Shown: positions 6,414 to 21,424 of the stretch, one piece after another
Layout: each line of letters begins with the position of its first letter
Position numbering within the stretch: the first letter of the stretch is position 1
Assembly (NCBI GenBank): GCA_050008715.1
Contig: JBEKMC010000005.1
Location: 2,473 to 66,472 of the forward strand
Reading direction: 5' to 3'
DNA length: 64,000 nucleotides
From: Acidimicrobiales bacterium
GTDB lineage: Bacteria; Actinomycetota; Acidimicrobiia; Acidimicrobiales; Bog-793
Made by a program: the position numbers and the translations under genes
The notes under the pieces: generated by a model
The model's database searches: none
What the model saw: only the letters and a program-made list of their open reading frames with translations
What the model was told of the DNA's origin: nothing

Positions 6414-7256
6414 CTACTGCGACGGCGCCGTCGTCGCGTCCGCGAGCCTGGACCGCCGCCCCTGACCGCGGCGACGGGCGACGGCCGTGCCGGCAAGCGC
6501 CGTGCCATAGCTGACGACGCCGAGCGTCCCGACGAAGAAACCCACCGGCCACTGCGACACATACGACGCCGCCACGGCCACCCAGACGGTGGCGAGGGCG
6601 ATGAGGACGGAGAGCCCCATTGCGCGGCTCGGTCGCGCCGTCAGCAAACGAGCAGACGCCGCCGGGGCGATCATCAAGCTGAACATGAGGAATGCCCCGA
6701 CCACCGGCACCGTCATCGTCGTCGCCAACGCGACGATCAAGAGAAAGCACAGCTCCATCAGCGACGAGCTGACGCCGCGGGCCTCGGCGACATCTCCGAG
6801 AACCGACGACAGGAGCAAGGGCCGGTAGCACACCGCGATTGCGGCGACGCACACCACGCCGAGTACCGCCAGCGGCACGAGCTGTCCGGCGCTCACGCCG
6901 AGCACTTCCCCGAACAGGAGCGAGTAGACCTCCGGGGCGTACTCGACGCTCATCGAGAGGAAGAGCGCACCGAGCCCGAGCAGCACGACGAGGGAGAGCG
7001 CGGTGGCCACGTCAGGCCGGCCGCGCCGGCCGAGCCAACCGATGCCGAGGGCGCCGAGGACTGCGAAGACGCCGAGACCGAGCAGCGTGTTGGCCCCGAC
7101 GAGGCTGGCGCCGGCCGCTCCGGCGAAGGCTCCTTGGGGAACGGCATGGGCGGCAAAGGCCGAGCCTCGCAGGACTGCGAAGAAGCCGACCACGCCGGCG
7201 ATGACCGCCACGAGGGAGGCTGCGATCCACGTGTCGGTCATGAAGCTCGAGAACAT
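6414..7256 (-). CDS. Metal (Zn/Mn) ABC transporter permease
   Basis: ABC-3/ZnuB-like hydrophobic protein (F.AHA, LLFGEVLGV, AEARGV). Confidence 0.9.
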   Translation of the reverse strand: MFSSFMTDTWIAASLVAVIAGVVGFFAVLRGSAFAAHAVPQGAFAGAAGASLVGANTLLGLGVFAVLGALGIGWLGRRGRPDVATALSLVVLLGLGALFLSMSVEYAPEVYSLLFGEVLGVSAGQLVPLAVLGVVCVAAIAVCYRPLLLSSVLGDVAEARGVSSSLMELCFLLIVALATTMTVPVVGAFLMFSLMIAPAASARLLTARPSRAMGLSVLIALATVWVAVAASYVSQWPVGFFVGTLGVVSYGTALAGTAVARRRGQGRRSRLADATTAPSQ

Positions 7257-7270
7257 GCTCGTCCAGTGCC

Positions 7271-8149
7271 CTAGGAGACCGGCGTCGCCGGGCGGCGGGT
7301 GCGCGTGAAACCGGAGAGCAGGTAGGCGGCGAAGATCAGGACGACCACGAAGAAACTGACCGGCCAGCCCCGTCCAGCCGGAGGCCAGCTATGGCTGTCG
7401 TAGGCGAGCACGATGCCGAGCCAGGTCGCACCGATACCGATGAGGCCGGCGGTCACCATGGCGCGGCCCGGCCGGCTGGTGAGACGAAGTGCGGTAGCCG
7501 CCGGCCCGATGAGCAGGGCCGTGCTGAGCACGGCACCGATCGTGATGGCGGCGAGGGCGACGGCGAGGGCCGTGGCGGCGAGGTAGCAGACCCCGACGAG
7601 TCGGACGGGGACACCGCGCGACGACGCCATGTCGGCGTTGAGCGAGCTCAGCAGGAGCATGCGATAGCAGGGGAGGACGATGGCGAGTACGAGCAGGCCA
7701 CACAGCGCGGCGATCACGGCCGTGCTGTGGTCGATGACGAAGATCGAGCCGAACAGGACCGTCATGGAGGCGCCCGTCGTGGTCGAGCTCGTCGTGTCCA
7801 GGTAGAGGAACAGCGCAGCGAGCCCGAGTACGCCCCCGAGCACGATGCCCGTCGCCACATCGCGGCCCCTCGCCCGCTGTACGCCGATCATCTCCATGGC
7901 GGACGTGGCCGCCAGCCCCATGACGACGAAACCCCAGATGGGATTGACCCCGAGAAGGAACGCGCCCGCGCCGCCCGTCGTGCTCACGTCCGAGAAGGCG
8001 TGGCCGGCGAACGACTGCCCGCGGATGACCGTGAAGACCCCGACCGGCCCGGACACGACCGACACGACCGCTCCGAGCACCAGTGCCACGTGCACCGCCG
8101 AGCTGTCGAAGAAGCCGGCAGCGAACAGGGGCTGGAGGAAGTGGCCCAT
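7271..8149 (-). CDS. Metal (Zn/Mn) ABC transporter permease (second paralog)
   Basis: RGQSFAGHA, LFGSIF, ASSRGV motifs; multiple TM segments. Confidence 0.9.
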   Translation of the reverse strand: MGHFLQPLFAAGFFDSSAVHVALVLGAVVSVVSGPVGVFTVIRGQSFAGHAFSDVSTTGGAGAFLLGVNPIWGFVVMGLAATSAMEMIGVQRARGRDVATGIVLGGVLGLAALFLYLDTTSSTTTGASMTVLFGSIFVIDHSTAVIAALCGLLVLAIVLPCYRMLLLSSLNADMASSRGVPVRLVGVCYLAATALAVALAAITIGAVLSTALLIGPAATALRLTSRPGRAMVTAGLIGIGATWLGIVLAYDSHSWPPAGRGWPVSFFVVVLIFAAYLLSGFTRTRRPATPVS

Positions 8150-8151
8150 GG

Positions 8152-9000
8152 TCAGTCGGGAGGCGGGAGGACGGTGATGTCGTGGGTGTCCCCGCCGGCG
8201 TCGATCCCGGCGCCCGACACGACGAGCACGCGGCCGTGCAGCCGCAGGACGTCGACGTGGTGCCCGTAGAGAGCGCTCAGCACTTCGGATCGCACGACCT
8301 CGTCGGCGGTCCCGCTGACCGCCCTTCCGTTGGCGATGTAGACGATGCGGTCCATCACGGGAAGGAGCGTGTTCACCTCGTGGGCCGAGATGAACACGGC
8401 GATGCCCTGTTCCCTCGCCACGCTGCCCAGCAAGTCGACGACCTCCTGAGCGCTTCGCAGGTCGAGGTTGGCGAGCGGTTCGTCGAGGAGTAACAGCTTG
8501 GGGCGGCTGATGATGGCATGGGCGATGAGGACGCGCTGCTGCTCCCCGCCGGAGAGCGTGCCGACCCGCGCGCGGCCGAACTCGCCGGCACCGACGGCTT
8601 GCAGCGCATCGTCCACGAGCTGCTCCCGGCGGCGGGACCGAAACGGTATCCCGAGCCGGTGCCCATCGAGGCCGAGCGCCACGACGTCTCGGGCGCGCAG
8701 CGGCAGGTCAGGGTCGAGCAGGAACTTCTGCGGCACGTAGCCGATCACCGGGTGCCGCCGGTCGTGCACCCCGCCCGCCACGACGACCGATCCGTGCTGG
8801 GTCGGCTGGAGGCCGAGCACCACGCGCAAAAGCGTGGTCTTGCCGGAGCCGTTCGGACCGATGAGGCCCGTTACCTCGCCGGCGCGCAGCGTGAAGGCGA
8901 CGTCGTGCAGCACCTCGCGCCCCGCGAAGGAGACACTGACGTCGTCGACGGCGAGGACCTCGTCGCCGGATCGCGTCGGGGGCGGAGGTGCCCCCGTCAT
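8152..9000 (-). CDS. Metal ABC transporter ATP-binding protein
   Basis: Walker A GPNGSGKT, LSGGEQQR signature, LLLLDEP Walker B. Confidence 0.95.
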   Translation of the reverse strand: MTGAPPPPTRSGDEVLAVDDVSVSFAGREVLHDVAFTLRAGEVTGLIGPNGSGKTTLLRVVLGLQPTQHGSVVVAGGVHDRRHPVIGYVPQKFLLDPDLPLRARDVVALGLDGHRLGIPFRSRRREQLVDDALQAVGAGEFGRARVGTLSGGEQQRVLIAHAIISRPKLLLLDEPLANLDLRSAQEVVDLLGSVAREQGIAVFISAHEVNTLLPVMDRIVYIANGRAVSGTADEVVRSEVLSALYGHHVDVLRLHGRVLVVSGAGIDAGGDTHDITVLPPPD

Positions 9001-9938
9001 AGCCGAGTGGTCGAAACGTTGGAGGCGAGAGCCTTGCGGAGCGCCCCGACCTCGGCCAGCATCCAGCTCTGGTAGTCGTACCCGGACGGCATCGTCTCGT
9101 AGACGGCGACGACGGGGACGCCGGCTTGTTGCGCCTGTGCGAGGAACGACTGGGTGATCGAGTCTGTGACTTGCTCGTTGTAGAGGAACACCCTCACGTG
9201 ATGCCCGTCGAGGAGGCTCTCCTCTGTCGACACGTCCTGCGGGGACGGGTCGACGCCGTTCATGATGTCGGCCTGCAACGACCAGGGGGTCCGGTTCTGT
9301 AGGCCGGCGGCTTCGAGCAGATAGTCGCCGACCGGCTCGGTCGTCGCCACCGGGGCGCCCGGGAAGTCAGCCTTCAGGGCGGCGATCGCGTGTGCCAACG
9401 GCGCCAGCGAAGCTTCGAAGGCACCGGCGCGGGCGTGAAAGAAGGCGGCATGACCTGGCTCGAGGGCTGCGAGATCAGTGGCGACTGCCTCCGCCACCGC
9501 CGGCATCGTCGCCGGCTGGTACCACAGGTGCGGGTTGGAGGTCGTCGTGCCGGACAGCCCGCTGAGGTCCTGGACGACGATGAGCTTGCGCCGCGGGTTC
9601 GGCGCCGCCGACTCGATCTTCGACATGAACGTGTCGTAGCCGAGGCCGTTCTGTACGACGAGCTCGGCTCCGCTCACCGCTTCGGCCACCTGCGGGCTTG
9701 CCTCGAAGGTGTGGGGATCGGTGTTCGGGTTGGACATGACGGCGGTGACGCTCACGTACGGACCACCGACCTGCGAGATCACGTTGGCGTACTCGTTCTC
9801 CGCGCCGACGGCGTCGATCACGCCGGCGGCGCCGGAGCTGGTCCTCGAGCAGCCTGTCGCGCTCAATGCGATCGCCACGACGGCGCCGGCGATGCGCAGC
9901 GGCCGACCGGTACGTCGGCCATGTCGTCTCCTGGGCAT
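8997..9938 (-). CDS. Metal (Zn/Mn) ABC substrate-binding lipoprotein
   Basis: Arg-rich signal and ATGC lipobox; DPHTFE, NPHLWY, TEPV motifs of TroA/ZnuA family; start at ATG 9938 is an estimate. Confidence 0.9.
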   Translation of the reverse strand: MPRRRHGRRTGRPLRIAGAVVAIALSATGCSRTSSGAAGVIDAVGAENEYANVISQVGGPYVSVTAVMSNPNTDPHTFEASPQVAEAVSGAELVVQNGLGYDTFMSKIESAAPNPRRKLIVVQDLSGLSGTTTSNPHLWYQPATMPAVAEAVATDLAALEPGHAAFFHARAGAFEASLAPLAHAIAALKADFPGAPVATTEPVGDYLLEAAGLQNRTPWSLQADIMNGVDPSPQDVSTEESLLDGHHVRVFLYNEQVTDSITQSFLAQAQQAGVPVVAVYETMPSGYDYQSWMLAEVGALRKALASNVSTTRL

Positions 9939-9958
9939 AATGAGAACGATAACCATTC
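9938..9958. promoter_or_regulatory. Putative Zur/Fur-family operator
   Basis: TAATGAGAACGATAACCATTC, an AT-rich imperfect palindrome (AATG..CATT) resembling actinobacterial Zur boxes, abutting the SBP start codon. Confidence 0.6.
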
Positions 9959-10047
9959 GCACTTGGGCGGGCAACCGCCGGACACCCGTCGACTAGTCTC
10001 ACCTCCGTGGTGCAGGGGGTCGAGACCAGCGTGACCAGCGGCTCTCG

Positions 10048-10884
10048 ATGAGCACCAGCACGGACGATCCCCAGACGTCGTCGTCGGCACGTCCGGTCGA
10101 CCGAGCGGCGGCCTTTGCTGCCGGCCCGACCAAGATCCCCCCGCGCGTCATCGTCATCGGCCTTGCCGTGATCGTCGCACTCGCCCTGCTCGGAATCCTG
10201 GGTGAGCGCTTCTTCTCGAGCGTGGGGCTCAACCCCGTGGCCCCGAAGTCCCCGCCGAAGGCATCGCCGACCACCCTGCCGGCAGGGATACCGCAACTCG
10301 ACGCCCCGCTCTCCGCTTTCATGGGGATCAAGGCGATGACACCGTTGGCGGCGCCCGGTTTCTCGCTCGTCGATCAGGCGGGCAAGGCCGTAAGCCTCGC
10401 CCGCCAACACGGCAAGGTTGTCGTGCTCACGTTCTTCGACGACAGCTGCAGCGACATCTGCCCGGTGCTGGAGGCGGAGATTGCGGCCGCCGCCACCGAC
10501 CTCGGGCGCTCGTCGGACCGGGTGGTGTTCCTCACGGTGAACACCGATCCGATGAGCCCCGTCGTGAGCGCGACATCGCCCGCGGTCAGCGATTCGGCCC
10601 TGAGCAACGTCACCAACTGGCATCTCCTCGGCGGTTCGCTCGCCGCCCTCGACCGCGTCTGGCGTGACGACGGCGTATCGGTCGCCGTCTCGCCGGCGAG
10701 CCGGATCGTTGCTCACAACGACGTGATGTACTTCATCGGCCCAGCTGGCCGCTTCGCCTACGAGGCGGTCCCGTACTCGAACGAGAGCCAGCTCGGCATC
10801 TTCAGCCTGCCGGCGGCGAACATCACGCGGTGGGGACACGGCATCGCCGAGTATGCCGAGAAGCTGCTGCGGAGTTCTCCGTGA
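10048..10884 (+). CDS. SCO1/SenC family copper chaperone, membrane anchored
   Basis: N-terminal TM; FSLVDQ, CSDIC (CxxxC) and distal His (AHND). Confidence 0.88.
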   Translation: MSTSTDDPQTSSSARPVDRAAAFAAGPTKIPPRVIVIGLAVIVALALLGILGERFFSSVGLNPVAPKSPPKASPTTLPAGIPQLDAPLSAFMGIKAMTPLAAPGFSLVDQAGKAVSLARQHGKVVVLTFFDDSCSDICPVLEAEIAAAATDLGRSSDRVVFLTVNTDPMSPVVSATSPAVSDSALSNVTNWHLLGGSLAALDRVWRDDGVSVAVSPASRIVAHNDVMYFIGPAGRFAYEAVPYSNESQLGIFSLPAANITRWGHGIAEYAEKLLRSSP

Positions 10885-11525
10885 CCGACTCCGATCCGAA
10901 CCCCGAGCTACGGGCGCCCGCGAAGCCCCCTTGGTACCGGCGGCGCGCCATTCTTTTGAGCCTCGGGGTCGCCATCGTGCTTGCCATCACGGTGATCACG
11001 GACCTGCCGACACACACCTCGATCGCCGCCCAGGTGTCGGAAGAGACGACGGTCCTCAACGAAGTCACGTCCGACGCGGCACCGTGCGTGGCCGCGGTGG
11101 GCGAGGCATTCGGCTTCTATGCCGACGTGACGAAGGGCTCCCTCACACCGTCCGAACAGGCGAGCCTGCCGGCGCTGCTCCGGGACGACCAGGCGTCGTG
11201 CTCGTTCACGAGCGAGTACGTCTACGACCTGTCAGGCATCGAAGTCCCTGGAACAGCCGCCGGCAGGGACGTGGGTGGCCTCGTGAGCACGATCACACTC
11301 TGGGTCACCTCCGATGCACTTGCCGCCATCGATGCCATCGACGAGCTGACGACCGACCCGACGAACGCGACGCAGGTGGCGGCGCTCGACAAGGCCGAAC
11401 GGCTGCTCGCCTCTGACCGGGCTTCGGTCAACGCGGAGCTTCACGCAGCCGATGGGGCGCTCGGAGGGGCCCACCTCCCCAGTCCAGGGCTGCCGGCCCT
11501 CCCGTCGCCTGCCGCCGACAGCTGA
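10881..11525 (+). CDS. Membrane-anchored helical hypothetical protein
   Basis: GTG overlapping the SCO stop (GTGA); one N-terminal TM; two Cys. Confidence 0.7.
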   Translation: MTDSDPNPELRAPAKPPWYRRRAILLSLGVAIVLAITVITDLPTHTSIAAQVSEETTVLNEVTSDAAPCVAAVGEAFGFYADVTKGSLTPSEQASLPALLRDDQASCSFTSEYVYDLSGIEVPGTAAGRDVGGLVSTITLWVTSDALAAIDAIDELTTDPTNATQVAALDKAERLLASDRASVNAELHAADGALGGAHLPSPGLPALPSPAADS

Positions 11526-11574
11526 GCCACCCGCACGGGCCGACTTCGCTCGTTGCGGGATCCGCGCTGCACGC

Positions 11575-12474
11575 TCAGCCGGCGTGCCCGCTTCCGGGCC
11601 GGGCGACGTCGCCGATCGAGATGGCGGGACCGAAGCTACGGCGCCGGTTCTCACGCACGAGGCGGTGCAGGCCCTGGTCCGGATCCTCGTCAGCCCTGAG
11701 CCAGGCCACAAGGTTCCAGAACACGACCGGCACGTACGCAGACGCCGCCGCGAACCACAGCACGAACGTCACGATCTCCTGGTCTGCGGCAAAGCTCAGG
11801 GAGCTGCCGGCGAGCGCATGGTGATAGCTCACGTACATCGAAGCGTGAGACAGGCCGACGAGGTAGGCCGTAATCCAGATGGTCCACATGGCGACGGCAG
11901 CGAGGGCGATGCGCTTCGGGCGAGCGAGCCGCGGGACGAGCGGAGGTGACTCCACCAGCTCGAGCCACAACGCCGCTCCACCCGCGATGAGACAGACGGC
12001 CTCGACGAGCACGAGCCAGGGGTGTCGTACAAGCGCGTTGACCACCGCCGGGGTTCTCGCGGCGGTGACGAGGGCCATCTCGACGAGGAGCACAGTCACG
12101 GCTCGGGCGAAGCCAAGATGGCGGTGGCGTGCTGTCGCCAGGCGGTCGATCAGCCGCGCTGAAGCAGTGGTGCCGGCAGACGGCTCGAATGACCCGGCGC
12201 CGGACCCTCCGTTGGAGAGCCGGAGGAATCGCCACGGTGCCCCGAGCACGAGGAGGGCGGGGACGACGATGGCGAGGACGGAGAACCGGAGCGCCTCGAA
12301 ATACTCATAGCGCCGCGCTTCGGTCGCAAACGGTGGCACGAGGACGACCAGCACCAGCACCGCCGCCGCGCAGGCCAGCGATGGTCGCACCCAAGGAGGA
12401 GGCACCACCGGCCGCTCTTCGGCGGCCACGCCGCTCAATGGGAGGGTCGGCGCTGGAAGAACAGCCAGATGCAC
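11575..12474 (-). CDS. ctaG: Caa3-type CtaG cytochrome oxidase assembly factor (divergent)
   Basis: PALLVLGAPW and ADQEI..VLW motifs; multi-TM; in cox operon; start uncertain. Confidence 0.7.
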   Translation of the reverse strand: MHLAVLPAPTLPLSGVAAEERPVVPPPWVRPSLACAAAVLVLVVLVPPFATEARRYEYFEALRFSVLAIVVPALLVLGAPWRFLRLSNGGSGAGSFEPSAGTTASARLIDRLATARHRHLGFARAVTVLLVEMALVTAARTPAVVNALVRHPWLVLVEAVCLIAGGAALWLELVESPPLVPRLARPKRIALAAVAMWTIWITAYLVGLSHASMYVSYHHALAGSSLSFAADQEIVTFVLWFAAASAYVPVVFWNLVAWLRADEDPDQGLHRLVRENRRRSFGPAISIGDVARPGSGHAG

Positions 12475-12551
12475 ACGGCGAAGAGCGTCCCGACGGGTAT
12501 GGCGAATGTCATCGCCTGGGCAGCGACAATCGAGCCGGTCGCGATGATCAT
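12435..12551 (-). CDS. 38-aa single-TM protein, probable small oxidase subunit
   Basis: GGAGGAG RBS then MIIATGSIVAAQAMTFAIPVGTLFAVCIWLFFQRRPSH, directly after subunit III. Confidence 0.6.
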   Translation of the reverse strand: MIIATGSIVAAQAMTFAIPVGTLFAVCIWLFFQRRPSH

Positions 12552-12589
12552 CTCCTCCACCTTTCGTCCCACGACTGCTGAGCCGCGGC

Positions 12590-13270
12590 TCAGATCACAT
12601 AAAACAGTACCCAAAACGCCAGCGACATCAAGGCCATGAATCCCCAGAAGTAGGCGCATCCTTCGAGGTTTGCCCGGAACAGCCGGGCCACCGGCTGCGT
12701 CGAGCGAGCTGGGCCGCCGTCCTGTGCAACGGCACGACGCAACCGCATCGCGCGGGCGAGCAACGTCTCCAACCAATACGTCCCGCACAGGAGCATGGCG
12801 ACGTTCAGAACGGCCCAACCGATGAAGCACGACGCGTAACCGCTCGAACCGGGGTAGAAGGGAAGATTCGTGAGCTGCCAGATCTGGAGCCCCACGGCGA
12901 CGAGCCCGCCGGCGACGGCCGTCCACCCGGCTACCTCCCAGTCCAGCGAGGGGCCTCGGCGCAGGCGGAAGATGCCGTAGGCGTTCAAGCCGGCGGCCAC
13001 GACGGCGATCACGAAGATGGCCGTGCCGGCCCCGATCGGAGCGGTGACGCCGCCCGGTCGCCATAGTTGATCGCTGTCCACCGACCGGAGGTAGAAGTAC
13101 GCGAAGGCCAGGGACGCGAAGGTGAAGACACCGATTCCGATCAGAAGTCGTCCACCGGTCCAGATCGCGCCCTCAGCCGATCGAAGCTCGTACTCGACCT
13201 CTTCGGCTGACTGTTGCAGCAGGTCGACTCGGGCATTGGGCCGACCAGCCGGCATCACATCGTCACTCAT
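12590..13270 (-). CDS. Heme-copper oxidase subunit III (short form)
   Basis: FASLAFAYFYLR, GYASCF motifs; ATGA overlap with subunit I. Confidence 0.8.
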   Translation of the reverse strand: MSDDVMPAGRPNARVDLLQQSAEEVEYELRSAEGAIWTGGRLLIGIGVFTFASLAFAYFYLRSVDSDQLWRPGGVTAPIGAGTAIFVIAVVAAGLNAYGIFRLRRGPSLDWEVAGWTAVAGGLVAVGLQIWQLTNLPFYPGSSGYASCFIGWAVLNVAMLLCGTYWLETLLARAMRLRRAVAQDGGPARSTQPVARLFRANLEGCAYFWGFMALMSLAFWVLFYVI

Positions 13271-15243
13271 GCGGGCAGTCCCCCTGGGTCAGGATCAGCG
13301 GCTCTTGCGATGGTCTCAGCCGAGGGCACGCTCGCCCCGACGGTCTCGATCGATCCGGACCCGAGGTCGGCTACAGGCGGAGCGCCAGGCTCGCTGTAGT
13401 GATACGGGTCGGCGAGGACGACCGGGATGCGGTCGAAGTTGTGGGGAGGCACGGGGGTGGCCGTCTGCCACTCGAGGCCGAGCGAGTCCCAGGGGTTCGC
13501 CGACGCCAGCTTCGGGTCGATGAAGATCGACCAGACGAAGTTGGCGATGAAGATGAGGAACGAGGCCCCGAGCAGGAAGGCGCCGACGGACGAGATGTCG
13601 TTGAGCGTCTGCAGGTTGGAGGCGTACTCGAAGACCCGGCGAGGCTGGCCGAGCAGGCCGACGAGGAAGAGCGGGAAGAACGTCACGTTGAAGAAGACGA
13701 ACATCGTCCAGAAGTGCCACTGGCCGAGCTTCTTGCTGAGCGTCTTCCCGGTCATCTTCGGCAACCAGAAGTAGAGGCCGCCGAAGAAGGCGAACACGAG
13801 GCCGCCCATGATCGTGTAATGGAAGTGCGCCATCACGAAGAAGCTCCCGTGCACGGTGACGTCGACGGGCACGTCGGAGAGGAACACGCCCGTCACACCG
13901 CCGATGAGGAAGTTGAAGTACATCCCCATGGCGAACAACATCGGCACCTCGAACCGTATCTTTGCTTTCCACAAGGTCCCCAGGCCCACGAGGAAGATGA
14001 ATCCCGTCGGTATCGAGATCAGCTCAGTCGTCAGCATGAAGAGTGGGCGCATGTCCGGGTTGATGCCGCTCTGGAACAGGTGGTGCTGCCACACGAAGAA
14101 GGACAGCAAGGCGACGCCGATCATGCCGGCGGCGGCGACGCGGTAGGCGAACAAGGGTTTGCGCGTGAACACCGGGAGGATCTCACCGACGATGCCGAAG
14201 CCCGGCAACGCCATGATGTAGACCTCCGGATGGCCGAAGAACCAGAACAGGTTCTGCCAGAGGAACGAGCTGCCACCGTGCTCGTTCACGTAGAACGCCG
14301 TCTGTACCGTCCGGTCGAGAATGCCGAGCAGGCCCGCCACGACAAGGGTCGGAGTTGCGAGCACGAGCAAGGCCGCGGTGGCGAGCACGGACCACACGAA
14401 GATCGGGATGCGTCCCCACGTCATGCCTGGCGCGCGGTAGTTGATGATCGTCGCGGCCAAGTTGAAGCCGGCGGTGATCATCCCGAGCCCGATCACCGCG
14501 AATCCGACGAGGTAGGAGTCCATCCCCAGCCCGGCCTGGGTCTGCAGCGAGGCGTAGCCGGTCCATCCGGTCGGGAACCCGCCCAAGGGGAGGGCGGAGA
14601 GGATGACGAGGTAGCCGGCGGCGAAGGTCCAGAGCGAGAAGGCCTCGACGCGGGGGAAGGCCATCTTCCGGGAGCCGATCATCAGCGGTATCAGCCAGTT
14701 GCCGAGCGGCCCGATGACGATGGACGACGCCATCATCATCATGATCGTCCCGTGCTCGCCGACCGTCGAGATGTACTGCCCCGGCCCGAAGACGTGGCTC
14801 GTGGGGCTCAACAGCTCGGTGCGGATACCCATGGCGAGGATGCCGCCCGTGAAGAAGAACAGCAGCACCACGATCGTGTACTGCAGTCCGACGACCTTGT
14901 GGTCGAGCGTCGGGCGGAAGTAACGGGTCCAGCTGTGTGACGGGAGCTGAGGCAACGGCTCACGCCCGATCAGCTTGGCTGCCGGGTAGTTGAACATGCC
15001 GGCACCGGCGAGCCACCCGACAACGCCGATCGACAGGCCGAGCACGATCGCCACGTTGTTCTGACCGTTGTCCTGCACAACTGTCTGGTTGGCGGCGATG
15101 ATGTTGCCGAAGAGATGGCCGAGGGCATAACCACCGACCGCTCCTGCGAGCGCCCACACGGCGTTCGGGCTGAAGAACCCGGCCGTCGGTCGTAGGCGCT
15201 CCTCAGGCGGCGAGTCGATGATCGCTTGCGTATCTACGCTCAT
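13267..15243 (-). CDS. ctaD: Heme-copper (cytochrome c) oxidase subunit I with N-terminal TM extension
   Basis: DHKVVG, EHGTIM, GWTGY, WFFGHPEVY, WQHH, AHFHY, GQPRR motifs. Confidence 0.96.
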   Translation of the reverse strand: MSVDTQAIIDSPPEERLRPTAGFFSPNAVWALAGAVGGYALGHLFGNIIAANQTVVQDNGQNNVAIVLGLSIGVVGWLAGAGMFNYPAAKLIGREPLPQLPSHSWTRYFRPTLDHKVVGLQYTIVVLLFFFTGGILAMGIRTELLSPTSHVFGPGQYISTVGEHGTIMMMMASSIVIGPLGNWLIPLMIGSRKMAFPRVEAFSLWTFAAGYLVILSALPLGGFPTGWTGYASLQTQAGLGMDSYLVGFAVIGLGMITAGFNLAATIINYRAPGMTWGRIPIFVWSVLATAALLVLATPTLVVAGLLGILDRTVQTAFYVNEHGGSSFLWQNLFWFFGHPEVYIMALPGFGIVGEILPVFTRKPLFAYRVAAAGMIGVALLSFFVWQHHLFQSGINPDMRPLFMLTTELISIPTGFIFLVGLGTLWKAKIRFEVPMLFAMGMYFNFLIGGVTGVFLSDVPVDVTVHGSFFVMAHFHYTIMGGLVFAFFGGLYFWLPKMTGKTLSKKLGQWHFWTMFVFFNVTFFPLFLVGLLGQPRRVFEYASNLQTLNDISSVGAFLLGASFLIFIANFVWSIFIDPKLASANPWDSLGLEWQTATPVPPHNFDRIPVVLADPYHYSEPGAPPVADLGSGSIETVGASVPSAETIARAADPDPGGLPA

Positions 15244-15279
15244 GAAGTTGTACCCAATCGTCCGGCGTGATGAGGGAAC

Positions 15280-16230
15280 TTAAGAGTTCGGCTTGGTTGC
15301 GCCGTATGTCTCGACGCTGCTGTACGGGTCCTTCGTGTCGGGGTAGAACCCACCGTCGGAACCGTTGGCGTCCGGCGTGTAGGTGTAGGCGAACGCCGGC
15401 AGCGTGGCGGTCAAGGGAGCCAACTGCGTCTCGGTCGTCTTCGCCCATTGCTCGAAGGCCGATTTGCTCACGACCTTCCCATAGTCGTACATCGCCCCGT
15501 GCCACAGCCCGCACAGCTCGTCACACCGAACGGTGAAGACGCCGAGCTGCTTGGTCGTCGTGAAGGCGACGTTGTCCGATCCCGGGTTGGCGTCGGCCTT
15601 GACACCGATCTGGTAGGCCCAGAAGTCGTGGATCACGTCGAGCGACGTCACGTGGAATTCGATCGTGGTGTCGTCGGGCAACATCAGGTTCGGCGTCTCG
15701 AAATTGCCGAACGTGGGGTACCGGTAGGTGAAACGCCACTGCTGGGCGATCACCTGCACCGGCAGGATCGTCGCCGACGACGGCGTCCAGAGAGGCGACG
15801 GCCCCTGCCCTCCGCCGGATCCGGTCGTGACCGCAAGCTCGACAGTACCGAAGACGAAGAGCGACAGGACGACGACGGTGGTGGTTGCGATCCAGATGAT
15901 CTGGACACGCAAGTTGCCTCGAGCCGCCGGCCCACCGACCGGCTCGGGCACTCCGGGCCTCGTCGAGCGCCACATGACGATCGCGTAGAGCATGTAGACC
16001 CAGACACCGATAAGGACGGGCAGGGCGATGAGCAACAGGACCGTGAAGTCGACGGAGTCCGAGGTGGCCGTGTCCGACATGCGGCCCGGCGGGACATGCG
16101 GACCGACCAGGAAGGCGAACAGCACGTCCGCCACGACGGACAACACGATCCAGATCGTGAGGATCCGCCGGAAGTGGTGTGGCTCGGCCGATCCCTCCGG
16201 GGCAGCCACGCTGTCCGCGACGGCGCTCAT
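15280..16230 (-). CDS. ctaC: Cytochrome c oxidase subunit II (CuA)
   Basis: QQWRFTYRY; DVIHDFW and CDELCGLWHGAM CuA ligands; ATG 16230 overlaps upstream stop. Confidence 0.93.
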   Translation of the reverse strand: MSAVADSVAAPEGSAEPHHFRRILTIWIVLSVVADVLFAFLVGPHVPPGRMSDTATSDSVDFTVLLLIALPVLIGVWVYMLYAIVMWRSTRPGVPEPVGGPAARGNLRVQIIWIATTTVVVLSLFVFGTVELAVTTGSGGGQGPSPLWTPSSATILPVQVIAQQWRFTYRYPTFGNFETPNLMLPDDTTIEFHVTSLDVIHDFWAYQIGVKADANPGSDNVAFTTTKQLGVFTVRCDELCGLWHGAMYDYGKVVSKSAFEQWAKTTETQLAPLTATLPAFAYTYTPDANGSDGGFYPDTKDPYSSVETYGATKPNS

Positions 16231-16907
16231 GACACCACCTTGAGGAAGCCGTCCATGTATCCGACCGACTGCATCGGGCCTCCGTTGCCGTAGAGGTACC
16301 CGAGCCCGCAGGGCACGAAGCACTGCCAGGGATACTCGCCGGGTCCGGGAGTGACGAACGAGAACGTGATGACGTTGTGGGCCAGGTTGGTGGTGCAAGG
16401 CGCCGAGTTGCAGAAGTTCGACGCACTGCCGTTGACGCCGGACAACGGGACGTTGATCCCGAGCGTCGGGATCGTGAAGGTGTGGGCGACACCGTTGCCG
16501 TTGTTGGAGTTGATCAACGAAGTCGACTTGCCGTTCAGCGACATCACACCTCCGCTGGTGCCCTGTACCAACCCCATCAGCTGGTTACGGAGCGGACTGC
16601 CCGAGTCGTACTCGTCGATCGTGACGTTGATCGTCGTGTTGGCGGGCAGGTCCCACAGCGTCGTGTGCACCCACTGGCCGCTCGCCGGATCCTTGGTCAG
16701 GTAGGAGACCCACGTCGGGTGGGCGCCGAACCCGATGGCCCCGACGGTCTGCAGCGTCATGTCGACCGGCTGGCCGGCCTGGTGACCGGAGGTGAAGTCG
16801 ATCGTGGGCGGTGACGAGCGCAGGAAGGCCGCTGCCAGAAACACGATGAGCGCGACGCCGATGCCCACGATCACGGCTGCGATCCCCAGCCTTCCCGAAC
16901 GAGACAA
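16227..16907 (-). CDS. Membrane-anchored cupredoxin-fold protein with atypical Cu ligand set
   Basis: N-terminal TM; AHTFTIP..GEYPWQCFVPCG..GPM..GYMDGFLKV C-terminal cupredoxin pattern. Confidence 0.75.
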   Translation of the reverse strand: MSRSGRLGIAAVIVGIGVALIVFLAAAFLRSSPPTIDFTSGHQAGQPVDMTLQTVGAIGFGAHPTWVSYLTKDPASGQWVHTTLWDLPANTTINVTIDEYDSGSPLRNQLMGLVQGTSGGVMSLNGKSTSLINSNNGNGVAHTFTIPTLGINVPLSGVNGSASNFCNSAPCTTNLAHNVITFSFVTPGPGEYPWQCFVPCGLGYLYGNGGPMQSVGYMDGFLKVVS

Positions 16908-17037
16908 CGCGCCCTCCCCCTCTCGCCGGGATCGCGCGGCCCGCCGTCCGGCCGACCCTCGGGAGGATCTACCGCACCGACGACCTGAGCTGCCCCCCGG
17001 TCGCTTCCAGCTCCGTCACCATGACTTCGCCGAGGTC

Positions 17038-17066
17038 ACCCTATTGGCCTTTGACCAGCCGGTCAA
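17038..17066 (-). promoter_or_regulatory. SigA-type promoter of cupredoxin-cox operon with overlapping palindrome
   Basis: Minus strand TTGACC-N17-TAGGGT; TTGACC-AGCC-GGTCAA inverted repeat at 17051-17066. Confidence 0.7.
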
Positions 17067-17103
17067 TGCTATTTACCAAATCTTGGGCTACGGCACGAGG
17101 CGA

Positions 17104-18003
17104 TCACGCCGGAGGGCGGAAGTCCTCGAGCGGCATGGCGGTCCTGCCGCGCATGATTCGCTCGGCCAAGCTCGAGATGCCCCCGTCCTCGGCAACGGCT
17201 CGCCTGATGACGACGACGAGGGCAGGCACCGCCCAGAAGTCGCCGCACACCCACAAGATGGCCGCACCGATCTGCTGGTCGGCAAACGGGGCCATCGAGA
17301 CGCCCGCGACGTGGGCGTAGACGTTGTACCAGGAGCCCGTCGCAAAGATGCTGAGCGACATGGCCAGCACGAACATGATGACGTTCGTCGAGACGATCGC
17401 GCCGATCTGCCAGGCCGTCGAGGCCTTCACCTTGAACGGGAAGGACGGGATGATCTGCAGCCAGAAGAGCACACCGGTCACGAAGAAGCTGGAGTGCATC
17501 AGCCAGATGTGCACGCTCTGGTTCCGCTCCGCCAGGTCGAAGAGTGCCGGCACGTGCCAGACGACCATGGCGATGTTGAACAGCGCGAGTGCGGTCCACC
17601 GGTTCGAGAGAGCGCGTCCGGCCGCACGCAGGAAGCGGGCGTTGCGCCCGAGGAGCAACGCTCGCCCGACACGCCGGCGTGGGCCAACGGGCAGGGCGAA
17701 CAGGAACGGCAACCACGGGGCTCCTGCGACGACGAGGATCGGGGCGAAGAAGCCGATGAGGATGTGCTCGACCATGTGCACGAAGAAGTAGTCGCTCGCG
17801 TAGTAGTCGATCGGCGACACCACGGCGACGAGCAGGACGGCGAGGCCCGCGTAGAACTCGAGTGCCCGCTTCCTCCGCTGCCGGGTCCGTCGCGGATCCG
17901 ACCGCCGCTGCAGGTGGGCCAGCCCGATCTCGTGAACGATCACGATGACTGCGACGACGACGATGAACGGGTCGAAGCTCCAATGGTCGACGACGTAGCT
18001 CAT
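17104..18003 (-). CDS. ctaG: Caa3-type CtaG cytochrome oxidase assembly factor
   Basis: SPIDYYA..FFVHMVEHIL, WHVPALFD, MHSSF, DQQIGAAILW; ATGA coupling. Confidence 0.9.
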   Translation of the reverse strand: MSYVVDHWSFDPFIVVVAVIVIVHEIGLAHLQRRSDPRRTRQRRKRALEFYAGLAVLLVAVVSPIDYYASDYFFVHMVEHILIGFFAPILVVAGAPWLPFLFALPVGPRRRVGRALLLGRNARFLRAAGRALSNRWTALALFNIAMVVWHVPALFDLAERNQSVHIWLMHSSFFVTGVLFWLQIIPSFPFKVKASTAWQIGAIVSTNVIMFVLAMSLSIFATGSWYNVYAHVAGVSMAPFADQQIGAAILWVCGDFWAVPALVVVIRRAVAEDGGISSLAERIMRGRTAMPLEDFRPPA

Positions 18004-19208
18004 GAAGACGAGCCGAAGGGAACTGGGACCCTCATCGCCTGCAGTTTGCCCCAGGCGCCGGTGGCGGCGCTCCACCGCCAGTCGATGAAGGTCGAGGCGC
18101 CCGTCACCGCCAGGGCGTCGACGACGGCACCGGCTTCGATGGACACGGTCGTCGTTCCCGGCGGCAGGCCCGCCAGCGGCCGCCACTGCCCGTGCGGCAC
18201 GACGGTCTCGAGCTCGAGCGACCCGCCGGCCCTGCGGACCACGACGAACACCTCTCCGTCACCGGTGATGCCGGAGGACACAATGCCGGCGCCGGCGAAA
18301 TCGAGCGGCGGGGAAAGCGCCCACGACGCGCCCGAACGCCAAGCAGCGACCACGTCGGTCGCTGCTCCTCGTCCGACCCCAACCAAGGCGGCGGCGCCGG
18401 AGGTGCCGTGGCCGGCGCCCCAGAGGCGGAGCACACCGGCCGGTTGAAGAGCCAGGGATCCGGTGAGTCGGGGACCAACCAGCGCCCAGCCACCGGCCGT
18501 CGCCGCGAACACGCCGACCAGGCCAGGTTTGCTGCAGTCGGCCCCGACGAGCTCGGTACCGTCGCTGGAGAAGGCCACCGAGGTCAGGGAGCTGACTTGA
18601 CATGACGAAGCCCCGCTCGAGCTCTCGAGGGCGCTTTGCGCCACCAGATCCGTCCAGCTCAGGATGCTTCCAGAACTCTCGACGACCTCGGCACCTTGCC
18701 CAGAGTGCGCCCGCAGGACGGCCGCGAGCCCCCCACGGACCGAGCTGGCAAGGGCATCCGGACCTGCGGCCAGCGCGCCCGGCACGATCCCCTGTGCCCA
18801 CGTGCCCTTCGTCGTGTTGCGTTGTGCGAGCGGCGAGTAAGTGAGCAGGTTGGTTGGCTCGATACCCGCCGTGAGCAGGTCGCCGGCGGCCGCGATCGTC
18901 AGGCCGCCGTTGAGGGCGACACCCGGAGGCGTCACGAGCGACCAACGCGTGCTCGCCAGCGGTCGGAAGAACAGCTCCCAGAACGTGTTCGCCGGCTGCC
19001 CGAGGATCCCCATCGGGAGCACCGCCCAGGTGCCCGACGACGTCACGAGCGTGCTGTTGAACGGGATGCTTGTCGCCACGACGCCGGTCCTCGGCGACGC
19101 CGGCGGCGGAGCGGCCTTCGAGCACGATGCGAGCAGGGCGACGGTGACCAGGGCGAGCATCAGCGAGGCGACGGCCGGAGGAGTCGACCGCCGGGTCCTT
19201 CGCTTCAT
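18000..19208 (-). CDS. Hypothetical lipoprotein (beta-rich)
   Basis: Basic N-terminus plus LLASC lipobox; coupled to both neighbours by 4-nt overlaps. Confidence 0.75.
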   Translation of the reverse strand: MKRRTRRSTPPAVASLMLALVTVALLASCSKAAPPPASPRTGVVATSIPFNSTLVTSSGTWAVLPMGILGQPANTFWELFFRPLASTRWSLVTPPGVALNGGLTIAAAGDLLTAGIEPTNLLTYSPLAQRNTTKGTWAQGIVPGALAAGPDALASSVRGGLAAVLRAHSGQGAEVVESSGSILSWTDLVAQSALESSSGASSCQVSSLTSVAFSSDGTELVGADCSKPGLVGVFAATAGGWALVGPRLTGSLALQPAGVLRLWGAGHGTSGAAALVGVGRGAATDVVAAWRSGASWALSPPLDFAGAGIVSSGITGDGEVFVVVRRAGGSLELETVVPHGQWRPLAGLPPGTTTVSIEAGAVVDALAVTGASTFIDWRWSAATGAWGKLQAMRVPVPFGSSS

Positions 19209-21067
19209 GAACCCATGATGCGCTTCATCTGCTCAGACAAAAGGGTGGCGAACGAAGAGCGGGAGGCGGAACCGACGCCCGTGTCGGTGCTGAGCACCTC
19301 GCGCATCTGCCCGGACGCATCGATGATGTAGGCGATGTCGCTGTGGGCGACCATGGCGCCGGCTCCCGGCACCGCCACCTGGACCGCATAGTCGTCCCAG
19401 ATGCGGCTCAGGGCGGCGGTCGTCCCGGTCAGGTACAGCCAATTGCTGAGGTGCTCGAGGCCCTCCTGCCGGTCGAAGGCCACCGTGAAGGCCGTGGCCC
19501 GGTAGATCGGGTTGGCGACGACCGCGACGAAGACCGTGCGGCTGGCGGCCGAGCCCAGCATCGAGTCCGCCTCCTTGAACTCCTGCGCGATCAGCGGGCA
19601 GTCCGACGTGCACACGGGATCGAGGAAGGTCAGTGCGACGGTCCTGCCACGGAGGCCGGCGAGCGAGACCGCCTGCCCGCTCTGGTCGACGAGCTGGAAA
19701 CCTGGCGCCGGCAAGTCGACCACGTTCGGGTTGCCGTCGACGGCGAGGGCGAGAATTGGATCGGCGTTCGGGTTGGCGGAGGCAGCCGCCATCGGAGCCG
19801 CCCCGAGCACGAGCAGTGCCAGCGCCCCGACCGACGCCGCCACCCGAAGTACATAGGAGGGCCGGACGCCGGCGGGCACTCGTATCCGATCGCGCCAGCT
19901 CGCGCGAGCGACCGGCTCCGTGGAGAGAACCACCTCCGGCTCGGCCACGGCCGGCGCCGTCACCGCGACCGGTACCCGCACGAGCGCGACGTACCCACTG
20001 ACGAGAACGAGCATCATCGGCAGCATGCTGTTGGGGTCGGTCCCCACACCACCGAGGAACCCGAGATCCTCGACCAGCACCCAATCCGCCAGCCCGAGGA
20101 TCACTGCAGCGATGACCGCAAATCGAGCCAGGTCCGGTCGACCCGTGGAGAGGACGAGGCCCATGGACGCCAACACGGCGACCACGAAGAGGTTGACCGC
20201 CCAGCCGTGAGCCGCGTCGAGCGAGCCGAACGACCCGAGCACGGAGGACATCGTGTGCGGCTGTGAGGTGAGCGCCATCTGGCGGACCATCCCGAGCAGC
20301 GCGCCCGAATGCCCGTTACCGGCCGCCCCGCGCCAGAAACCACGATCCGGCCATGCCTGAAGGACCGCCATCCCGGCGAAGAAGACCCCGAAGGCTCGCA
20401 GCAGCCGGCGACCAAGGGCGGGCGACGCCCAGGCTCGTTCGGGCAGTGCCAGCAGTGCCCCCGCCAAGCAATAGAAGAGTGCAGCACCCGGTGCCCCGAA
20501 CAGCCAGGACAGCCCGGGCGCAAAGATGCCCCCGAAGGCTTCCCCGAAGACCCACACCACGAGCCCCCAGCCGAGCGAGGCCGCTCCGGCGAAGCGCGTC
20601 CAGCGACCGCGCGGGGCGACGAGCAGCAGGACGCCGAGGGCGATCTGGATCCACACGGTAGAGACGGCTGCCTCGACGGGGTGGTTCGTCCAGGTGGTCA
20701 CGCCGAAGTTCACAAGATGCTGCACCCAGGACGGCGACGTGGCAGACGCCGGCTGGAGGACGCTCGAAGGCAGCCCGAGGGGCATGTCAGGCTGGATCTG
20801 TAGGACACCGTCCACGATCCAGAGCACGGCGAAGCCGATCCGCAAGACCCGCCGTGCAAGCGGTTCGGGATCGCTGGGCGGCACGTCCACCGGCTCGGCG
20901 TCGCCGTCGAGCAGGCGCCGGATTTGCGTCATCCGCACGACGCTCGATCCGAGGAGGAACACGCTGAGAACCACGCCGACGACAAGGAGTTGGTGCATCA
21001 GCAAGGAGTGGAAGGCCGCGATCACGACGGGATTGTTCGCCTGAAGGTGGCGCCCCATCCCTGTCAC
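19205..21067 (-). CDS. Multi-TM membrane domain fused to C-terminal SCO domain
   Basis: About 9 TM segments then FQLVDQ, CTSDC (CxxxC), AHSD. Confidence 0.85.
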   Translation of the reverse strand: MTGMGRHLQANNPVVIAAFHSLLMHQLLVVGVVLSVFLLGSSVVRMTQIRRLLDGDAEPVDVPPSDPEPLARRVLRIGFAVLWIVDGVLQIQPDMPLGLPSSVLQPASATSPSWVQHLVNFGVTTWTNHPVEAAVSTVWIQIALGVLLLVAPRGRWTRFAGAASLGWGLVVWVFGEAFGGIFAPGLSWLFGAPGAALFYCLAGALLALPERAWASPALGRRLLRAFGVFFAGMAVLQAWPDRGFWRGAAGNGHSGALLGMVRQMALTSQPHTMSSVLGSFGSLDAAHGWAVNLFVVAVLASMGLVLSTGRPDLARFAVIAAVILGLADWVLVEDLGFLGGVGTDPNSMLPMMLVLVSGYVALVRVPVAVTAPAVAEPEVVLSTEPVARASWRDRIRVPAGVRPSYVLRVAASVGALALLVLGAAPMAAASANPNADPILALAVDGNPNVVDLPAPGFQLVDQSGQAVSLAGLRGRTVALTFLDPVCTSDCPLIAQEFKEADSMLGSAASRTVFVAVVANPIYRATAFTVAFDRQEGLEHLSNWLYLTGTTAALSRIWDDYAVQVAVPGAGAMVAHSDIAYIIDASGQMREVLSTDTGVGSASRSSFATLLSEQMKRIMGS

Positions 21068-21424
21068 GTGATCCTCGCCTCCTTTTCACTGCCTGCTGGT
21101 CAGTGTCGCAGCGCCGGCGGCGATCATCGCACAAGAAATTGTTCGCAATCACGCACCACCCGAAGCGTCCCGGGGCCTCATGGTCCAGGTCGGAAGCGCC
21201 GATACATTCTGTATGAGATGCAACGTTCGCGCCCTGCGCACCTCCACGCGCCAGCGGCGCATCGACGTCACGCCTCGAGAGCGCACCGACGTCGCCCGAC
21301 CGGGGCGCGGGTCGACACCGCCTGTCCAGCTGAGATGAACGGACTGACTCGGCCGGGACGCGACCTCTGGGCTCGGCCGTTCGGCGACGCCGTCGCGGAC
21401 GCCGCACGCATCGTTCGATCGAGG

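Follow-up and report, generated by a model that had tools for sequence, protein, structure and literature searches.

Background

The control of pump coupling by charges in the D-channel of heme-copper oxidases has been debated for decades, with almost all of the evidence coming from three or four model enzymes and their point mutants. In the canonical A-type oxidases, Asp132 and Lys362 (Rhodobacter sphaeroides numbering) are essential, and an acid at position 139 alters pumping. Here we describe a natural departure from this arrangement in an Acidimicrobiales bacterium, encoded in a window of 64,000 nucleotides that is the whole stretch of DNA analysed (positions 2,473 to 66,472 of contig JBEKMC010000005.1, assembly GCA_050008715.1; coordinates below are those of the window). 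The gene at 13267..15243 on the (-) strand encodes CoxI, the catalytic subunit of a second, auxiliary and well-conserved family-A heme-copper oxygen reductase of peat and soil actinobacteria, in which a base stands at the position of Asp132, a Glu stands at that of Asn139, and the K-channel Lys is missing.

The laboratory mutants to which this variant can be compared are summarised in passages of a review (PMC7196763), where N131D in Paracoccus, N139D in Rhodobacter and N99D in yeast are described as losing pumping at 100-300% activity, D132N as leaving 4% of the activity, and the R. sphaeroides double mutant D132N/N139D as having 'restored full proton pumping capability'. The double mutant resembles CoxI in that the carboxylate is gone from position 132 and an acid has been placed at 139. 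It differs in that CoxI has a base rather than Asn at 132, Glu rather than Asp at 139, and no K-channel Lys, and in that the CoxI variant is natural and conserved whereas the mutant was engineered.

Among natural enzymes, the relatives to consider are those of the '2TM Chloroflexi & Actinobacteria' subclade of COX1, catalogued in Suppl. Table S1 of Degli Esposti et al. (2021, PMC8239418) and also treated in a 2020 preprint (bioRxiv 10.1101/2020.03.01.968255). According to the supplementary tables of the former, the subclade takes in Chloroflexi, Acidimicrobia, other Actinobacteria and Ca. Dormibacter (Table S1), with Acidimicrobium ferrooxidans, Acidithrix ferrooxidans and Acidimicrobiaceae USS-CCA1 among the named members (Tables S1 and S7), and is marked by two extra N-terminal transmembrane segments (TMs), a K-channel given as 'KC, hybrid or modified', the motif HPEVY, and caa3_CtaG. 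For Acidimicrobium ferrooxidans and Acidithrix ferrooxidans, the table of Fig. S7 lists S291→M/A, K354→L/I, S357→V and COX2 E78→Q, with T351 kept; the CoxI clade reads G/M/A, I/L/V, V and T at the positions of S291, K354, S357 and T351, respectively, with Gln in COX2. By comparison with these tables, CoxI shares the extra TMs, the lack of the K-channel Lys, HPEVY, a CtaG gene in the cluster, and the COX2 E78→Q change, and unnamed 2TM relatives group with it in our trees with support of 98-99. CoxI thus belongs to the deep-branching, Lys-less '2TM' subclade, and its K-channel loss, two extra TMs and CtaG linkage are already known because they have been catalogued for that subclade in the tables of PMC8239418 and the text of the preprint. 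The difference lies elsewhere: the tables and passages of PMC8239418 that describe the subclade give neither the D124→R/K plus N131→E pair (Paracoccus numbering) nor a helix VIII Glu, and the preprint, in the passages concerned, calls the D-channel of K-less COX 'essentially conserved' and reports K-less signatures also from organisms not reported to be acidophilic. We found no description in the literature of a natural Asp132→Arg/Lys change together with Asn139→Glu, or of a helix VIII Glu, in a search that left outside its scope subscription journals, bioRxiv supplements (among them the preprint's Suppl. Fig. S10) and the figures that accompany PMC8239418 as PDF files; the base-plus-Glu rebuild of the D-channel entry is, therefore, the variant not found in print.

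Three further systems bear on the comparison. Acidophilic iron oxidisers (Acidithiobacillus, Acidiferrobacter) have, in the rus operon, an aa3 oxidase (CoxBACD) that is likewise Lys-less, with the COX2 entry Glu substituted, additional TMs at the N-terminus, a linked CtaG gene and rusticyanin, a cupredoxin, as electron carrier, but it belongs to another subclade and, according to the preprint text, has a conserved D-channel; 29 further open reading frames (ORFs) examined in the window include no gene for a cytochrome or for iron oxidation. The canonical actinobacterial CtaD, both that of Mycobacterium smegmatis and the one in the genome analysed here, shares the fold and the metal ligands with CoxI, and the former is its best sequence match in the PDB; the M. 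smegmatis protein differs in having D115, N122 and K340, in lacking an N-terminal extension, and in receiving electrons from the bcc complex within a supercomplex, as described in parts of PMC11189923. Finally, in the cytochrome c-type nitric oxide reductase (cNOR) of Pseudomonas aeruginosa, a helix VIII Glu, Glu280 of NorB, occupies a hydrophilic pocket beneath the active site, where the K-pathway would end, according to a passage of PMC3431322. The likeness to CoxI is the conserved helix VIII Glu, a putative counterpart of E407; cNOR differs in lacking the cross-link Tyr and in drawing its protons from the periplasm.

The D-channel entry of CoxI

Residues at the channel sites were equated by two routes. 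With M. smegmatis CtaD (6adq_F) as the reference, a HMMER alignment without gaps at either site pairs K193 with D115, E200 with N122, I416 with K340, T413 with T337, and E340/Y342 with E266/Y268; PMC11189923, in the relevant text, assigns these M. smegmatis residues to the D- and K-channels. The other route ran through a Paracoccus-like CtaD (P0186) with numbering tied to PDB 1ar1_A and with the channel residues defined as in Table 2 of PMC3084760. In this numbering, CoxI carries D124→K, N131→E, S193→M, K354→I and S291→G, and retains Y35, N113, S134, N199, E278, Y280 and T351; in R. sphaeroides numbering, D132 corresponds to K193, N139 to E200, and K362 to I416. The original prediction, made from the bare sequence and placed at 13990-14680 (residues about 188-418), had claimed the substitutions D132→K, N139→E and K362→I from a manual alignment. 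The strings that it quoted are all present, namely, GSRKMAFPRVEA (residues 190-201), GHPEVY (337-342), TTELISIPTG (405-414) and PTGFIF (412-417, followed by L), both alignments bear out the three substitutions, and neither alignment restores the canonical Asp or Lys. The codons concerned are 14665-14667 for K193, 14644-14646 for E200, 14224-14226 for E340, 14023-14025 for E407 and 13996-13998 for I416. The entry site as a whole, with R192, K193 and E200, spans 14644..14670 on the (-) strand, and the base and E200 are conserved. The Arg that replaces Pro just ahead of the Asp position ('GAPD' to 'GSRK') is nothing special, given that 'GARD' is common in ordinary family-A sequences.

Conservation was gauged in a set of 121 sequences, namely, the query and its 120 best homologues, which are 74-98% identical, have intact frames and, where named, come from metagenome-assembled genomes (MAGs) of Acidimicrobiales. 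Position 193 is Arg in 108 of these and Lys in 13, and E200 is invariant (121/121). The canonical family-A D-channel set is accordingly incomplete throughout the clade, with D124→R/K, N131→E and S193→M each found in 121/121, and the interior of the channel is nonetheless kept: no sequence departs from Y35, S134, N199 and E278, nor from Y280 and T351, and at N113 a single Gln stands against 120 Asn. Because the interior is conserved, the channel would still be under selection. The identity levels and intact frames of the homologues also indicate that CoxI as a whole is under purifying selection. Among the 79 CoxI ORFs recovered from 80 related genome loci, position 193 is Arg in 77, Lys in one and Gln in one, and E200, E407 and GHPEVY are each present in 79/79.

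The wider distribution was sampled in 150 other genomes spread across the order, three of which, unpublished (G065, G143 and G042), were counted only as genomes without a match. Full-length orthologues (57-83% identity) were found in nine of the 150, all nine with Lys or Arg plus Glu; in the two genomes searched from the window's own family, the only match in each was of the canonical type. The order also harbours seven more distant 2TM-type paralogues (40-45% identity) that have Asp and Asn (D..N) at the D-channel entry. Six of these are Lys-less and carry the helix VIII Glu, and the seventh (L099) has the Lys and lacks this Glu. HPAVY, without the E286 equivalent, is found in L099 and in four of the other six.

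Several side observations can be made on these sequences. Four of the paralogues (L093, L094, L096 and L097, from genomes G091, G040 and G024) are of the 2TM type and Lys-less, with Asp and Asn kept, HPAVY and the helix VIII Glu; L093 and L094 each have one in-frame stop within the matched stretch. The R/K+E clade itself bears two signature residues, E163 (14755-14757) ahead of the heme a His and Q386 (14086-14088) ahead of the CuB His pair. The D/N-type paralogues of the order lack Q386 and have a hydrophobic residue at the E163 position, and Ile occupies position 163 in one of the nine R/K+E orthologues.

A second origin of the base-plus-Glu pair

Two COX1+3 fusion proteins of 818 amino acids, P0267 and P0272, carry the pair as Arg in place of Asp132 and Glu in place of Asn139 ('GTKRLAFPKLES'). 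The clade in which they are nested consists of COX1+3 fusions, and those of its members that have a name are archaeal MAGs; in a set of P0267 and its other 116 listed matches, 113 of the 117 sequences have D..N. In both a FastTree tree of 108 rows and an IQ-TREE tree of 40 rows, the two R/K+E groups are nested in different, well-supported clades, and therefore two changes are required. An approximately unbiased (AU) test on 25 rows rejected a single clade of all R/K+E rows (p 0.0003, log-likelihood difference 163), for a group that was named after inspection of the tree and under LG+G4, without a mixture model. The Arg/Lys-plus-Glu pair thus appears, from the trees, to have arisen a second time, in an archaeal-type lineage.

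Identity of the enzyme and its catalytic core

CoxI has 658 amino acids and 14 predicted TM helices, and matches Pfam COX1 (PF00115) with E 3.3e-129; its best solved relative, M. smegmatis CtaD (6adq_F), is found with E 3.6e-125. The AlphaFold2 model (mean predicted local distance difference test, pLDDT, 83.3) superimposes on R. sphaeroides subunit I with a VIA-align Z of 49.2 and a root-mean-square deviation (rmsd) of 1.8 A over 495 residues, and on the canonical actinobacterial aa3 CtaD (M. smegmatis 6ADQ/6HWH) with Z 49.1 and 2.1 A over 513 residues. The twelve-helix core of subunit I of the heme-copper superfamily is thus present, and so are the six His ligands of the two hemes (low- and high-spin) and of CuB, H164, H338, H387, H388, H473 and H475, invariant in 121/121, as is the E286 equivalent, so that the claim that all these residues are kept holds across the clade. 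HPEVY (14218..14232, (-) strand; invariant in 121/121 and 79/79) supplies the CuB ligand His338, Glu340, and Tyr342. The Tyr is the cross-link residue that identifies an oxygen reductase, and E340, equivalent to E278 of Paracoccus and E286 of R. sphaeroides in helix VI, assigns the enzyme to type A1. R473/R474 (Paracoccus numbering) are retained as well, and none of the nitric oxide reductase (NOR) Glu motifs, as quoted in a passage of PMC3084760, occurs in the CoxI sequence. With this full set of catalytic residues retained (six His, cross-linked Tyr, E286 equivalent, Arg pair), the oxygen chemistry of the enzyme should be ordinary. The score against NCBIfam TIGR02891 (CtaD_CoxA), 564.2 bits, is under the equivalog cut-off of 670.75.

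The same genome encodes, on another contig (C90), a canonical CtaD with GAPDMAFPRLNA, GHPEVY and PTGVKFF, and therefore the gene at 13267..15243 encodes a second oxidase. The two extra N-terminal TM segments noticed in the original prediction are seen in the secondary structure of the AlphaFold2 model as helices 28-49 and 63-80 (15004..15162, (-) strand), with a block-mean pLDDT of about 69-96; structural alignments with most of the listed solved aa3 and cytochrome c oxidase chains begin only at model residues 102-108. Residues G/W/N62/Y86/K90 of this extension are conserved in the clade, and comparable extensions of 89-128 residues occur in related '2TM' representatives. At the Mg/Mn site, the Asp (D404) is replaced by Gly, with the His retained (H465-G466, 13846..13851, (-) strand; Gly in 121/121). 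This Gly (G466, 13846-13848) accompanies the helix VIII Glu (E407, 14023-14025) in most of the representatives that carry the latter.

The K-channel side and helix VIII

To judge from its residues, the canonical K-channel is absent, as it is from the whole subclade: Lys is replaced by Ile, Leu or Val, Ser291 by Ala, Met or Gly, and the subunit II Glu by Gln. In the 121 sequences, position 416 is Ile in 71, Leu in 47 and Val in three, so that K354→I/L/V joins S291→M/A/G in breaking the canonical set, of which T351 and Y280 are retained; the subunit II entry Glu, which is the TM2 Glu of canonical CtaC, is Gln in 37 of 42 clade CoxII sequences.

The helix VIII segment at 13996..14031 ((-) strand) contains T405, T406, E407, S410, T413 and I416, the last at the Lys362 position and the first five forming a polar stripe. 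The extra Glu that the original prediction had picked out in this helix is real and invariant (E407, 121/121 and 79/79), and T405, E407 and S410 are clade-conserved polar changes, of which T405 and S410 differ from canonical CtaD. In a set of 140 family-A representatives spanning helix VIII, the Lys-bearing sequences never have an acid where CoxI has E407 (0/71), and 32/69 of the Lys-less ones have Glu there. The E407-bearing, Lys-less representatives fall mainly in two clades, and because the association follows these clades, it may be mere phylogeny. The stripe formed by T413, S410, E407 and T405/406 is a candidate for the end of a path that would replace the K-channel.

The gene cluster and the partner proteins

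Searches with tblastn against 80 related loci define a conserved ten-gene cluster that consists of CoxI, a CuA-bearing subunit II, a divergent protein like subunit III, a cupredoxin-like protein with a membrane anchor, four copper-assembly factors (two CtaG and two SCO), and two proteins of no family. CoxI was found in 80/80 of these loci and CoxII in 77/80. The gene for CoxII (15280..16230, (-) strand; ORF open to 16398, start at 16230 assumed) encodes a Pfam COX2 protein with complete CuA ligands (CDELCGLWHGAM) and no cytochrome c domain, which scores 115.9 bits against TIGR02866, under the cut-off. The CuA ligands H201, C236, E238, C240, H244 and M247 are invariant in 29 sequences; for this alignment, 32 of 65 ORFs passed the filter and 28 were used, references with an internal stop being left out.

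Directly upstream of coxII, in 78/80 loci, lies the gene for a membrane-anchored, cupredoxin-like protein of no described family, here denoted cup226 (16227..16907, (-) strand), which has no match in Pfam or NCBIfam even at lenient E-values. It consists of one TM helix and a beta domain, with invariant H142, C166, C171, C196, C200, M212 and M218; a cupredoxin would have a Greek-key beta sandwich with a C-terminal Cys/His/Met copper loop, and cup226 offers the invariant H142, C196, C200 and M212, without a second His. Its model has a pLDDT of 69.8, and the top Foldseek matches, rusticyanin (E 5.1e-4) and oxidase subunit II, are weak, with TM-scores of 0.3-0.6. It differs from rusticyanin in its ligand pattern (H, C, C, M, M) and in being membrane-anchored. 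Prediction of the CoxII-cup226 complex gave a score of 0.61 against 0.00 for the best control; the mark for this score is reached by 116/157 solved complexes and 2/215 mismatched pairs, counts that apply roughly here, where our own alignments were used. The runs share at least 36% of the contacts, with a partner pLDDT of at least 86, and in the modelled interface CoxII residues 241-249, next to the CuA ligands, face the cup226 loop that contains C196, C200 and M212. The models support binding of cup226 to CoxII, and cup226 is a candidate electron donor or extra subunit.

Downstream of CoxI, in 79/80 loci, is a gene for a divergent, five-helix, subunit III-like protein of 226 amino acids (12590..13270, (-) strand). 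It has no direct match in Pfam, and its homology to COX3 is seen in the hhalign comparison with the genome's own CtaE (probability 90.6%, E 1.3e-6, 165 columns). The protein has an invariant acidic patch near the N-terminus, E23, E24 and E28, with R30; this patch could be a proton-collecting antenna near the altered mouth of the D-channel.

The two caa3_CtaG-type assembly factors are encoded on the (-) strand at 11575..12474 (copy a; PF09678, E 1.2e-16; 78/80 loci) and 17104..18186 (copy b; E 2e-45; 79/80). Beyond copy b, on the same strand, follow a 402-amino-acid exported protein (18000..19208; 40/80 loci at 50% coverage or more) and a 620-amino-acid membrane protein with a C-terminal SCO1/SenC domain (19205..21067; PF02630, E 1e-9; 60/80). 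At the other end, transcribed divergently on the (+) strand, are a SCO1/SenC protein (10048..10884; PF02630, E 2.1e-11; 73/80) and a protein of 231 amino acids (10830..11525; 76/80). Neither the 402- nor the 231-amino-acid protein matches anything in Pfam or NCBIfam, lenient E-values included. The ZnuABC-type metal ABC transporter that adjoins the oxidase cluster (6414..9974, (-) strand) lies outside the conserved block, with ZnuA found in 0/80 and ZnuC in 2/80 loci.

Expression and habitat

The sequencing runs that hold the CoxI gene are labelled as peat, permafrost or soil metagenomes, and the labels of runs and MAGs overall read peat, permafrost, bog and palsa. These labels are compatible with acidic soils and carry no pH values. 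Parts of 12438-17008, a segment that holds the genes for the CoxIII-like protein, CoxI, CoxII and cup226, are covered by contigs that are 95-99% alike to the window and stem from four RNA libraries (four studies); examples are a contig of 1807 nucleotides over 15120-16904 and one of 1081 nucleotides over 12751-13831. The flanks, about 10000-12200 and 17050-21100, have almost no RNA-library contigs, which is not evidence either way. The contigs are compatible with expression of these genes in close relatives.

Proton entry: the proposed reading and the alternatives

We consider it fairly probable that CoxI serves in an auxiliary 2TM oxidase with a working D-channel that is entered at E200 and with the canonical K-channel absent. 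Arg or Lys has replaced the surface Asp, and under this reading the entry carboxylate would have been relocated to E200, which takes the place of Asn139 at a depth of one to two further helical turns and with which R/K193 probably pairs. E200 is read as the relocated entry because an acid was lost at 132 and gained at 139, as in the double mutant, in a channel whose interior is conserved; the D-channel would still function, entered differently, and pumping would be retained. The original prediction spoke of 'rewired proton channels', which is fair as a description of the sequence, where the K-channel Lys, Ser291 and the subunit II Glu are gone, the entry Asp has become a base and a new Glu has appeared. 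Its functional inference, of altered or uncoupled pumping suited to a large pH gradient, is borne out less well: N139D by itself uncouples, but 'uncoupled' pumping does not follow from the substitutions found here, and because the variant resembles D132N/N139D, which is described as fully pumping in the review passage (PMC7196763), uncoupling is not the default expectation. A bolder version, in which a conserved, charge-relocated D-channel has evolved at least twice in an enzyme without a K-channel and the R/K-E pair, as a gate, tunes the pKa of the residue equivalent to E286, strikes us as doubtful, if worth entertaining.

Several observations weigh against the relocated entry. The net charge of the entry is base plus acid in CoxI and neutral plus acid in the laboratory double mutant, and the new acid is Glu rather than Asp, so that the precedent is a partial one; the pumping result itself is taken from the passage of the review (PMC7196763) and not from the original papers. 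In one of the 79 loci, Gln stands in place of the base at position 193. Simple helix geometry sets E407 half a turn off the register of the Lys362 face. For the second origin, there is the post hoc grouping and the simple substitution model of the AU test. Finally, the RNA-library contigs come from close relatives and not from this strain, and may reflect carry-over of DNA.

The most substantial competitor of the relocated entry is that the Glu at the Asn139 position acts as in N139D/N131D, giving fast oxygen reduction with no or weak pumping, which would be useful under an already large pH gradient. The mutants N131D, N139D and N99D do lose pumping at 100-300% activity in the account of PMC7196763, peat, bog, palsa and permafrost are the labels on the runs and MAGs of the organism and its relatives, and a second oxidase beside a canonical one could conceivably have a specialised, low-coupling role. 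But in CoxI Asp132 is lost too, and the double loss and gain in D132N/N139D is reported, in the same review passage, to pump fully. The appeal to pH is further weakened by the canonical D/K oxidase kept in the same genome, by the D/N-type 2TM paralogues that live in the same order, by the K-less COX1 that the preprint (bioRxiv 10.1101/2020.03.01.968255) reports from organisms not known as acidophiles, and by habitat labels that give no pH values. On balance, we regard a non-pumping enzyme as unlikely, with roughly the odds of a weak but live contender.

Less likely again is that an R/K193-E200 salt bridge shuts the mouth of the D-channel and all protons enter through another single path, such as T413-S410-E407, as in the one-channel oxidases of the B and C families. 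The invariance of E407, the confinement of an acid at this position to Lys-less enzymes (32/69 against 0/71), the clade-conserved polar changes S410 and T405, and the cNOR Glu in a hydrophilic pocket overlapping the K-pathway end (PMC3431322, in the passage cited above) all speak for such a path. Yet no entrance to it is visible, because hydrophobic residues occupy the lower positions of the K-channel and Gln replaces the entry Glu of subunit II; N113 (120/121), N199, S134, Y35 and E278 are conserved, which is unexpected for a dead channel; the link between E407 and the loss of Lys follows two clades and may be phylogenetic; and the equivalence of E407 with Glu280 of cNOR is putative. That CoxI is not an oxygen reductase at all, being instead a decaying paralogue, an NO reductase-like protein or some other repurposed heme-copper enzyme, is highly improbable. 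The score below the NCBIfam CtaD equivalog cut-off (564 against 670.75 bits), the loss of the Mg/Mn-site Asp and the unusual partner proteins might be taken that way; they are set against the cross-link Tyr and three CuB His that are kept, the lack of any NOR motif quoted in the passage of PMC3084760, the 74-98% identity across more than 120 clusters, the conserved ten-gene cluster, and the RNA-library contigs that cover the genes.

Implications

The clade amounts to a natural experiment on a question so far addressed in model enzymes, in which the entry acid has been moved onto the very position whose mutation uncouples those enzymes, and this in at least two lineages. CoxI and its clade are also without the K-channel Lys that is essential in the model enzymes, and hence bear on whether a full pump needs the textbook two-channel layout. 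If the bolder version of the relocated-entry reading is true, a single re-entered channel, alone or joined by a new helix VIII path, could supply a family-A oxidase with all its protons and still support pumping. Moreover, the cluster points to an undescribed membrane-anchored copper protein as a putative partner of subunit II, which bears on the supply of electrons to oxygen in the Acidimicrobiales, bacteria that are abundant in peat and soil.

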